DNA from: Escherichia coli
Lineage (GTDB): Bacteria > Pseudomonadota > Gammaproteobacteria > Enterobacterales > Enterobacteriaceae
DNA: 64,000 nt
NCBI RefSeq assembly: GCF_024700885.2
Contig: NZ_CP117016.1
Strand: one strand, 5' to 3'
The translations under genes and the position numbers were made by a program. The notes under the pieces are model-generated. The model saw only the letters and a list, made by a program, of their open reading frames with translations. It was not told where the DNA came from and did not search any database. Each line of letters opens with the position of its first letter. The stretch's first letter is position 1. Below, piece after piece: positions 33,541 through 33,665 of the stretch.

Positions 33541-33555
33541 TCACTCCCACTCAAT
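33541..33555 (-). other. Displaced 3'-terminal remnant of guaA (last codons IEWE-stop); prophage attachment junction
   Basis: Reverse complement reads ATT GAG TGG GAG TGA matching the GuaA C-terminus as I recall it; upstream reading frame is immediately broken by a TAA. Confidence 0.65.
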
Positions 33556-33665
33556 TATTTACGACAAGCATAACCAATTGAGTGACAACATTTTTCCAAA
33601 ACTTAATTATTACCGTACCGTTTTATATACCGTCACCGAAAATCAGTACCATGAAAAATGCCATG

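Follow-up and report, generated by a model that had tools for sequence, protein, structure and literature searches.

A Uetakevirus prophage of the phiV10/ε15 type in the guaA attachment site of Escherichia coli

Integrases that target the 3' ends of genes bring a replacement 3' end in attP, as in P4 and P22, which use tRNA and tmRNA genes. With these integrators, attP and the target share an identity segment over the 3' end of the gene; integration rebuilds the gene at the junction next to int and leaves behind an orphan fragment at the opposite one. The locus described here follows the same plan, although its target is the end of a protein-coding gene, guaA, and the duplication amounts to just four codons and the stop codon. 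The sequence attgagtgggaatgatt is the attP of the phage vB_EcoP_ZX5, for which PCR and sequencing confirmed that attB, attL, and attR lie at the 3' end of guaA (Zhang et al.; PMC9782041). phiV10 and ε15 were cited in the same study with the same core as phages integrating at the 3' end of guaA (PMC9782041), and a phiV10-like phage was found in guaA of an O103:H25 outbreak strain (PMC3293862). The 3' end of guaA is also used by the GIsul2 islands, for whose integrase the core GAGTGGGA was proposed and tested (PMC9376610). Excision and integration were demonstrated experimentally for ZX5 (PMC9782041) and for GIsul2 (PMC9376610).

In our study, the window, a stretch of 64,000 nucleotides of an E. 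coli genome (contig NZ_CP117016.1), was found to contain a junction between yfgI and phage DNA. We regard the phage as almost certainly a phiV10/ε15-type Uetakevirus prophage, integrated site-specifically at the 3' end of guaA through its normal attachment site. The closest described systems are phiV10 (NC_007804), phiv142-3, HEMP4, vB_EcoP_ZX5, and the O157 typing phages 9/10, which have the same gene order as the window prophage. In this group, the virion, terminase, and lysis genes were 84-98% identical to those of the window at the DNA level and the integrase was 99% identical. The 17-bp core of the group likewise lies between Rz and int, and the target is likewise the 3' end of guaA (PMC9782041). 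phiV10 differs in some of its early genes and contains the O-acetyltransferase gene oac at the place where the window prophage contains a hexapeptide-repeat acetyltransferase gene with a 3' VNTR. ε15 (Uetakevirus epsilon15; NC_004775) contained the core ATTGAGTGGGAATGATT between Rz and int, as in the window prophage, together with GTGACGGTAT repeats as annotated integrase-binding sites and a terminator hairpin between the core and int. It differs in its Salmonella host, its lower DNA similarity to the window, and its conversion genes, which encode an O-antigen ligase family protein, an α-polymerase inhibitor, and a transacetylase repressor. The features of the junction and of the adjoining lysis cassette were as follows.

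29277-31520, minus strand: pdeF, host gene left of the junction
No coordinates given: yfgG, host gene between pdeF and yfgH
32374-32892: yfgH, host gene left of the junction
32908-33447, plus strand: yfgI (DUF5384 protein), ORF of 179 aa, annotated as yfgI by RefSeq in MLI114, BL21, and others
33488-33515, minus strand: native hairpin terminator between the convergent genes guaA and yfgI (terminator scan, 12-pair stem, T-run)
33539-33555: 17-bp att core, AATCACTCCCACTCAAT on the plus strand, the reverse complement of ATTGAGTGGGAGTGATT; int-distal copy of the flanking direct repeat
33541-33555, minus strand: orphan guaA 3' remnant (IEWE-stop), the host's original last four codons and stop codon
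33544: single-base difference between the core copies, C here (host allele, GAG), T in the copy next to guaA and also in phiV10 and ε15 attP (GAA)
33556-33665: non-coding phage arm of attP, from the core to the Rz stop codon, aligning to phiV10 26610-26719
33556-64000: in-window part of the Uetakevirus prophage, 30.4 kb out of a total of about 39 kb, as aligned by blastn with phiV10 and MLI114
33627-33636, minus strand: candidate arm-type integrase-binding site, GTGACGGTAT
33666-34148, minus strand: Rz-like i-spanin (PHROG 312, E = 5e-59; PHROG 11621, E = 4e-40, with Rz1), corresponding to phiV10p30/p30a
33674-33949: embedded Rz1-like o-spanin, within Rz (PHROGs)
34145-34774, minus strand: endolysin of glycoside hydrolase family 19 (PHROG 181, E = 1e-90; RefSeq annotation)
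34764-35072, minus strand: holin (with the second holin-like protein, PHROG 217, E = 2e-34, and PHROG 198, E = 3e-36)
35059-35463, minus strand: second holin-like membrane protein (PHROGs)

The last host gene ahead of the junction was yfgI. The minus strand from 33555 to 33541 was read directly as ATT GAG TGG GAG TGA, i.e., I-E-W-E-stop, and the frame was closed by a TAA at 33561-33559, two codons upstream of the remnant, as the first-pass annotation had described it. The C-terminus that this annotation gave for GuaA was correct, since GuaA of both BL21(DE3) and the strain MLI114 ends in ...GKPPATIEWE. The guaA/yfgI terminator that it had placed next to the remnant was also found, with a stem of 12 pairs and, on the minus strand, a T-run behind it. 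The native terminator was identical in the genomes with an empty site. In the lysogen, the prophage separates it from guaA, and the gene that it now follows is Rz of the phage.

The region 33100-34100 was searched by megablast against 5426 complete E. coli genomes, of which 5416 matched. In these, the 456 nucleotides from 33100 to 33555, comprising yfgI, the intergenic hairpin, and the core, aligned at 95-99% identity. In the empty-site genomes of the BL21(DE3) type, the match covered query positions 1-456, stopped at 33555 of the window, and ran on into guaA; the uninterrupted host alignment past this point that would have spoken against an integration was not seen. When a genome was counted as sharing the junction at a query coverage of at least 80%, the same yfgI-to-phage junction was present in 362 of the 5426 genomes (6.7%).

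All sequence from 33,556 onward had been assigned to a phage, and the comparisons agreed with this. The window from 33539 to 64000 was collinear with phiV10 over roughly 75% of its length at 84-98% identity, and the best megablast matches were all of the Uetakevirus type, namely phiv142-3, HEMP4, phiV10, the O157 typing phages 9/10, and the SPN1S group. The record of phiv142-3 begins at the same core as the window junction. The part of the prophage within the window contained lysis genes, an acetyltransferase, a tail fibre, virion genes, a tRNA-Arg (TCT), terminase, and early genes, followed beyond 64000 by the repressor, recombination genes, an excisionase-like gene, the integrase, and the second core. 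The lysis cassette proposed at the junction was recovered with PHROGs as Rz/Rz1, a GH19 endolysin, and two holins, starting from 33666. The description of this end as the left junction holds in the orientation of the window; by the λ convention, in which attL adjoins int, it is the int-distal junction. The tRNA-Arg gene (57570-57646, plus strand) was located between terminase and portal genes that are encoded on the opposite strand; the annotation of MLI114 includes it, whereas the features listed for phiV10 do not.

This junction was aligned with three other sequences, namely the empty site of BL21, the spacer between Rz and int in phiV10, and the junction of MLI114 on the guaA side, and the four-way alignment gave an identity segment of 17 bp, AATCAYTCCCACTCAAT. 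The unit shared by the host and the phage comprises four codons, the stop codon, and two more bases (33539-33555); the 15 nucleotides of IEWE-stop named in the first-pass annotation lie inside it, and the true unit is two bases longer. The pattern was reciprocal, with host sequence on the left and phage sequence on the right at this junction, and phage sequence on the left and host sequence on the right at the other. In a pattern search, the reverse complement of the core, ATTGAGTGGGARTGATT, was found once each in phiV10 (26720-26736), ε15 (26732-26748), and BL21, in both free phages between Rz and int, and twice in MLI114. The core of the window was located 110 nucleotides from the stop codon of Rz. 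A direct-repeat search found no second copy of the core inside the 64-kb window; the other end of the element lies beyond 64000.

The two core copies differed at position 33544. A composite query, joining the left flank, the C allele, and guaA, was matched at empty sites with 100% identity over 67 nucleotides by all 15 of the matches listed, and 116 genomes scored at least 99%. A mutation after integration was considered as the origin of the C. It seemed at first to be favoured by YL3, the nearest empty-site relative on the yfgI side, which contains T at the equivalent position, and was outweighed by the many empty sites with the C allele and an identical flank. Because the C allele with this flank is common at empty sites, a post-integration mutation is less likely, and a natural host allele is the preferred origin of the C. 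Since the host would then have contributed C and the phage T at 33544, the strand exchange probably took place on the guaA side of this base, within 33545-33555. The base would act as a naturally marked crossover, narrowing the strand exchange to at most 11 bp, within ATTGAGTGGGA. The GIsul2 core, GAGTGGGA, corresponds to 33545-33552 and falls inside this interval, and a crossover within ATTGAGTGGGA is consistent with the core proposed for GIsul2.

The far junction, the integrase, and the excisionase-like gene were read in the genome of MLI114 (NZ_CP117013.1) and not in the window's own genome. MLI114 matched the window from 31512 to 64000 (32.5 kb) by blastn with zero mismatches and a single gap of 8 nucleotides. 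Its element is about 39 kb long and extends about 8.5 kb beyond the end of the window, where the order was found to be replication genes, repressor, RecT and nuclease genes, an AlpA-like HTH gene, a methyltransferase, the integrase, the core, and guaA. The two core copies of MLI114 were located at 5934-5950 and 44958-44974 of its extracted locus (L001), about 39 kb apart, and the direct repeat of the core expected at the far end was thereby found in a genome that matches the window without a mismatch. The tyrosine integrase of MLI114 has 416 aa, is 99% identical to phiV10 Int, and is encoded by a gene that starts 190 nucleotides from the core. It contained the Pfam domains Arm-DNA-bind_3 (8e-20), Phage_int_M (2e-11), and Phage_integrase (3e-19), and it matched PHROG 1 at 4e-87.

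The guaA gene of MLI114 was intact, with 1578 nucleotides encoding 525 aa and ending in ...PPATIEWE, and the protein was identical to BL21 GuaA at 503 of 504 positions over the compared part. The same GuaA accession, WP_000138282.1, was found in the lysogen MLI114 and in the non-lysogen YL3. The proposal that guaA is restored at the other end, outside the window, was upheld in MLI114, where the integrase, the second core, and a full-length guaA were found together and guaA adjoined the element. The empty attB, with contiguous host sequence across the core, was present in BL21 and YL3, and the flank with the C allele was empty in at least 15 genomes. None of the genes of the MLI114 prophage was flagged as a pseudogene.

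In the arms of the attachment site, the 9-mer TGACGGTAT occurred in three copies in the reconstructed attP, one in the arm within the window and two in the int-side arm, at the same positions as in phiV10. The sequence GTGACGGTAT, which the window's copy spells on the minus strand, is annotated as 'protein_bind integrase' at equivalent places in the ε15 GenBank record, alongside IHF sites, and the GTGACGGTAT repeats presumably bind the N-terminal domain of Int as arm-type sites. An inverted 9-mer, CACTCAATT (33548-33556) and AATTGAGTG (33576-33584), pairs the guaA-proximal half of the core with a site 20 nucleotides into the phage arm; it was conserved in phiV10 and contained one mismatch in the prophage of the lysogen YF-1. 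It could serve as a core-type site for Int, be related to IHF, or have arisen by coincidence. The Rfam search of 31500-37000, including the phage arm, gave no match to a curated RNA at E values up to 0.1.

The phage arm downstream of the restored guaA contained its own terminator hairpin (L001 5995-6018 in MLI114), which is annotated in both phiV10 and ε15. Its stem was nearly identical to that of the native guaA/yfgI terminator, with an 8-bp stem, CCCTCTGT...ACAGAGGG, present in phiV10 and in the host alike, whereas the copy in this prophage contained one stem mismatch relative to phiV10. As the phage arm brings its own terminator, both recombinant junctions keep one, guaA that of the phage and Rz the native one. 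Because the terminator stem of phiV10 is the same as the native guaA/yfgI stem, the comparison suggests that the attP region may descend from a captured 3' flank of guaA.

The sequence comparisons support the following course of events. A temperate Uetakevirus podovirus has almost certainly recombined into a site that overlaps the end of guaA, with its last four codons and its stop codon. A P4-type tyrosine integrase, with arm-binding, core-binding, and catalytic domains, recombines ATTGAGTGGGARTGATT, which attP contains between Rz and int and which also lies where guaA ends. At the int-distal junction, this gives the order yfgI, native terminator, host copy of the core with the orphan IEWE-stop, phage arm, and lysis cassette. 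About 8.5 kb past the end of the window, as read in MLI114, is the other junction, where the phage copy of the core completes guaA with an identical protein sequence, and the phage terminator hairpin following the restored gene leaves guaA both intact and terminated. We infer that the prophage may still be excisable and inducible.

Outside the junction, the prophage was found to differ from phiV10 at its tail fibre. The tail fibre/tailspike has 1024 aa and is encoded on the minus strand at 36819-39893. Only its N-terminal residues, about 145 in number (39459-39893), aligned with phiV10 DNA, and the PHROG tail families matched about residues 1-225. As the rest of the tail fibre and the acetyltransferase replace the fibre body and oac of phiV10, this implies that the module for receptor specificity and serotype conversion has probably been swapped relative to phiV10.

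The exchange of this module and the stem mismatch in the phage-supplied terminator would both suit a cryptic or defective prophage, a remnant fixed at guaA that could neither excise nor make virions. We consider this unlikely. The copy in MLI114 was full length (about 39 kb), free of pseudogene flags, and contained both core copies intact together with a full set of integrase, AlpA-like HTH, repressor, replication, terminase, portal, capsid, tail, and lysis genes. Its integrase shared 99% identity with the integrase of phiV10, a viable phage, and close relatives such as ZX5 were spontaneously induced (PMC9782041). A site-specifically integrated phiV10/ε15-type prophage also has to be distinguished from a non-phage integrative element, such as a mobilizable island of the GIsul2 type, and from a match of IEWE-stop that arose by chance or through a chimeric assembly. 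The latter is the least probable of the readings and can practically be dismissed; the junction was contiguous with 456 nucleotides of yfgI-guaA intergenic homology, it was reproduced in 362 independent complete genomes, and the phiv142-3 record starts at the same core.

A non-phage island at this junction is ruled out by the gene content of 33556-64000, although such islands occupy exactly this guaA site in other genomes and GIsul2 was shown experimentally to target the 3' end of guaA (PMC9376610). The strain VE-F5 contained an island of about 12 kb of the GIsul2 type (L017 34134-46400), with int, an HTH gene, repA/repC, trbJKL, ars, and a resolvase, and the integrases of this island and of the phage were 54% identical across 396 aa. 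The strain LF3-1 contained two DUF262 genes and no integrase at the same guaA core (L018 42347-46257). Both showed the core variant ...CCCACTCGAT at the yfgI-side junction, so that the island junctions differ from that of the window on the side of the element. In the window, the core is adjoined by the attP arm of phiV10, followed by phage lysis, tail, and capsid genes. The islands of the GIsul2 family resemble the phages in that their core, GAGTGGGA, falls inside the phage core and guaA is likewise restored. They are not phages, and they differ in their IncQ-type replication, trb transfer genes, arsenic resistance cargo, and arm sequences. The int-alpA-repA-repC-trb-ars backbone of a GIsul2-type island was looked for at the window site, and lysis and virion genes were found in its place.

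The hexapeptide-repeat acetyltransferase gene (35644-36768, plus strand) was located in the serotype-conversion slot of the prophage, and its 3' end contained a perfect array, (GCACAGCA) x 42.75, at 36419-36760. The array encodes (AAQQHSST)n in all three repeat frames. The protein gave a weak match to Pfam Hexapep, whereas its NCBIfam sugar O-acetyltransferase matches were all below the curated cut-offs, and its best phage homologue by tblastn was NeuO of CUS-3, with 36% identity over 81 aa. A single unit of the array was the sole difference between the window and MLI114 across 32.5 kb. The gene was present in 10 of the 5426 complete E. coli genomes, and the size of the array ranged between about 2.5 and 52.75 units among these 10 carriers, as follows.

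EC0026B (five lab derivatives, all identical): about 2.5 units, degenerate; protein of 267 aa
AST205: 16.75 units; 303 aa
PAR: about 23 units; 381 aa
Window: 42.75 units; 374 aa
MLI114: 43.75 units; 375 aa
SW070919: about 50 units; 416 aa
E100341: 52.75 units; 399 aa

The copy number alters the length of the tail and also picks one of three C-termini, namely ...AAQ, ...TVI, or a hydrophobic read-through of 25 residues. No paper containing the GCACAGCA repeat was found in the paper library that was searched for it. A 5' heptanucleotide repeat makes NeuO phase-variable, and earlier reports noted that a longer NeuO repeat region raises its catalytic activity (PMC13001214). The array resembles this switch of CUS-3, with an octanucleotide at the 3' end here instead of the heptanucleotide at the 5' end of neuO. 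We tentatively suggest that the (GCACAGCA)n array might be a slipped-strand contingency locus, in which the copy number would set the length of a disordered (AAQQHSST)n tail and the C-terminus, and would thereby tune the activity or localisation of the O-acetyltransferase.

The biology of the junction is already known, ordinary, and well documented. The locus is a textbook case that holds nothing surprising for a specialist, and the repeat array is more interesting than the junction. The analysis fixes the boundary of the prophage to the base, at 33555/33556, identifies the element as a Uetakevirus that leaves guaA undisrupted, provides a natural SNP marker of the crossover at 33544, and gives a frequency of about 6.7% for such a junction among complete E. 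coli genomes. Unrelated elements compete for one 17-bp site, namely the Uetakevirus phages, the islands of the GIsul2 type, and a small DUF262 insertion; of these, the phages and the GIsul2-type islands use related integrases. If the reading of the array is true, its copy number would tune a phage-encoded O-acetyltransferase of the surface polysaccharide, and the array would be a 3'-end octanucleotide counterpart of the NeuO switch.
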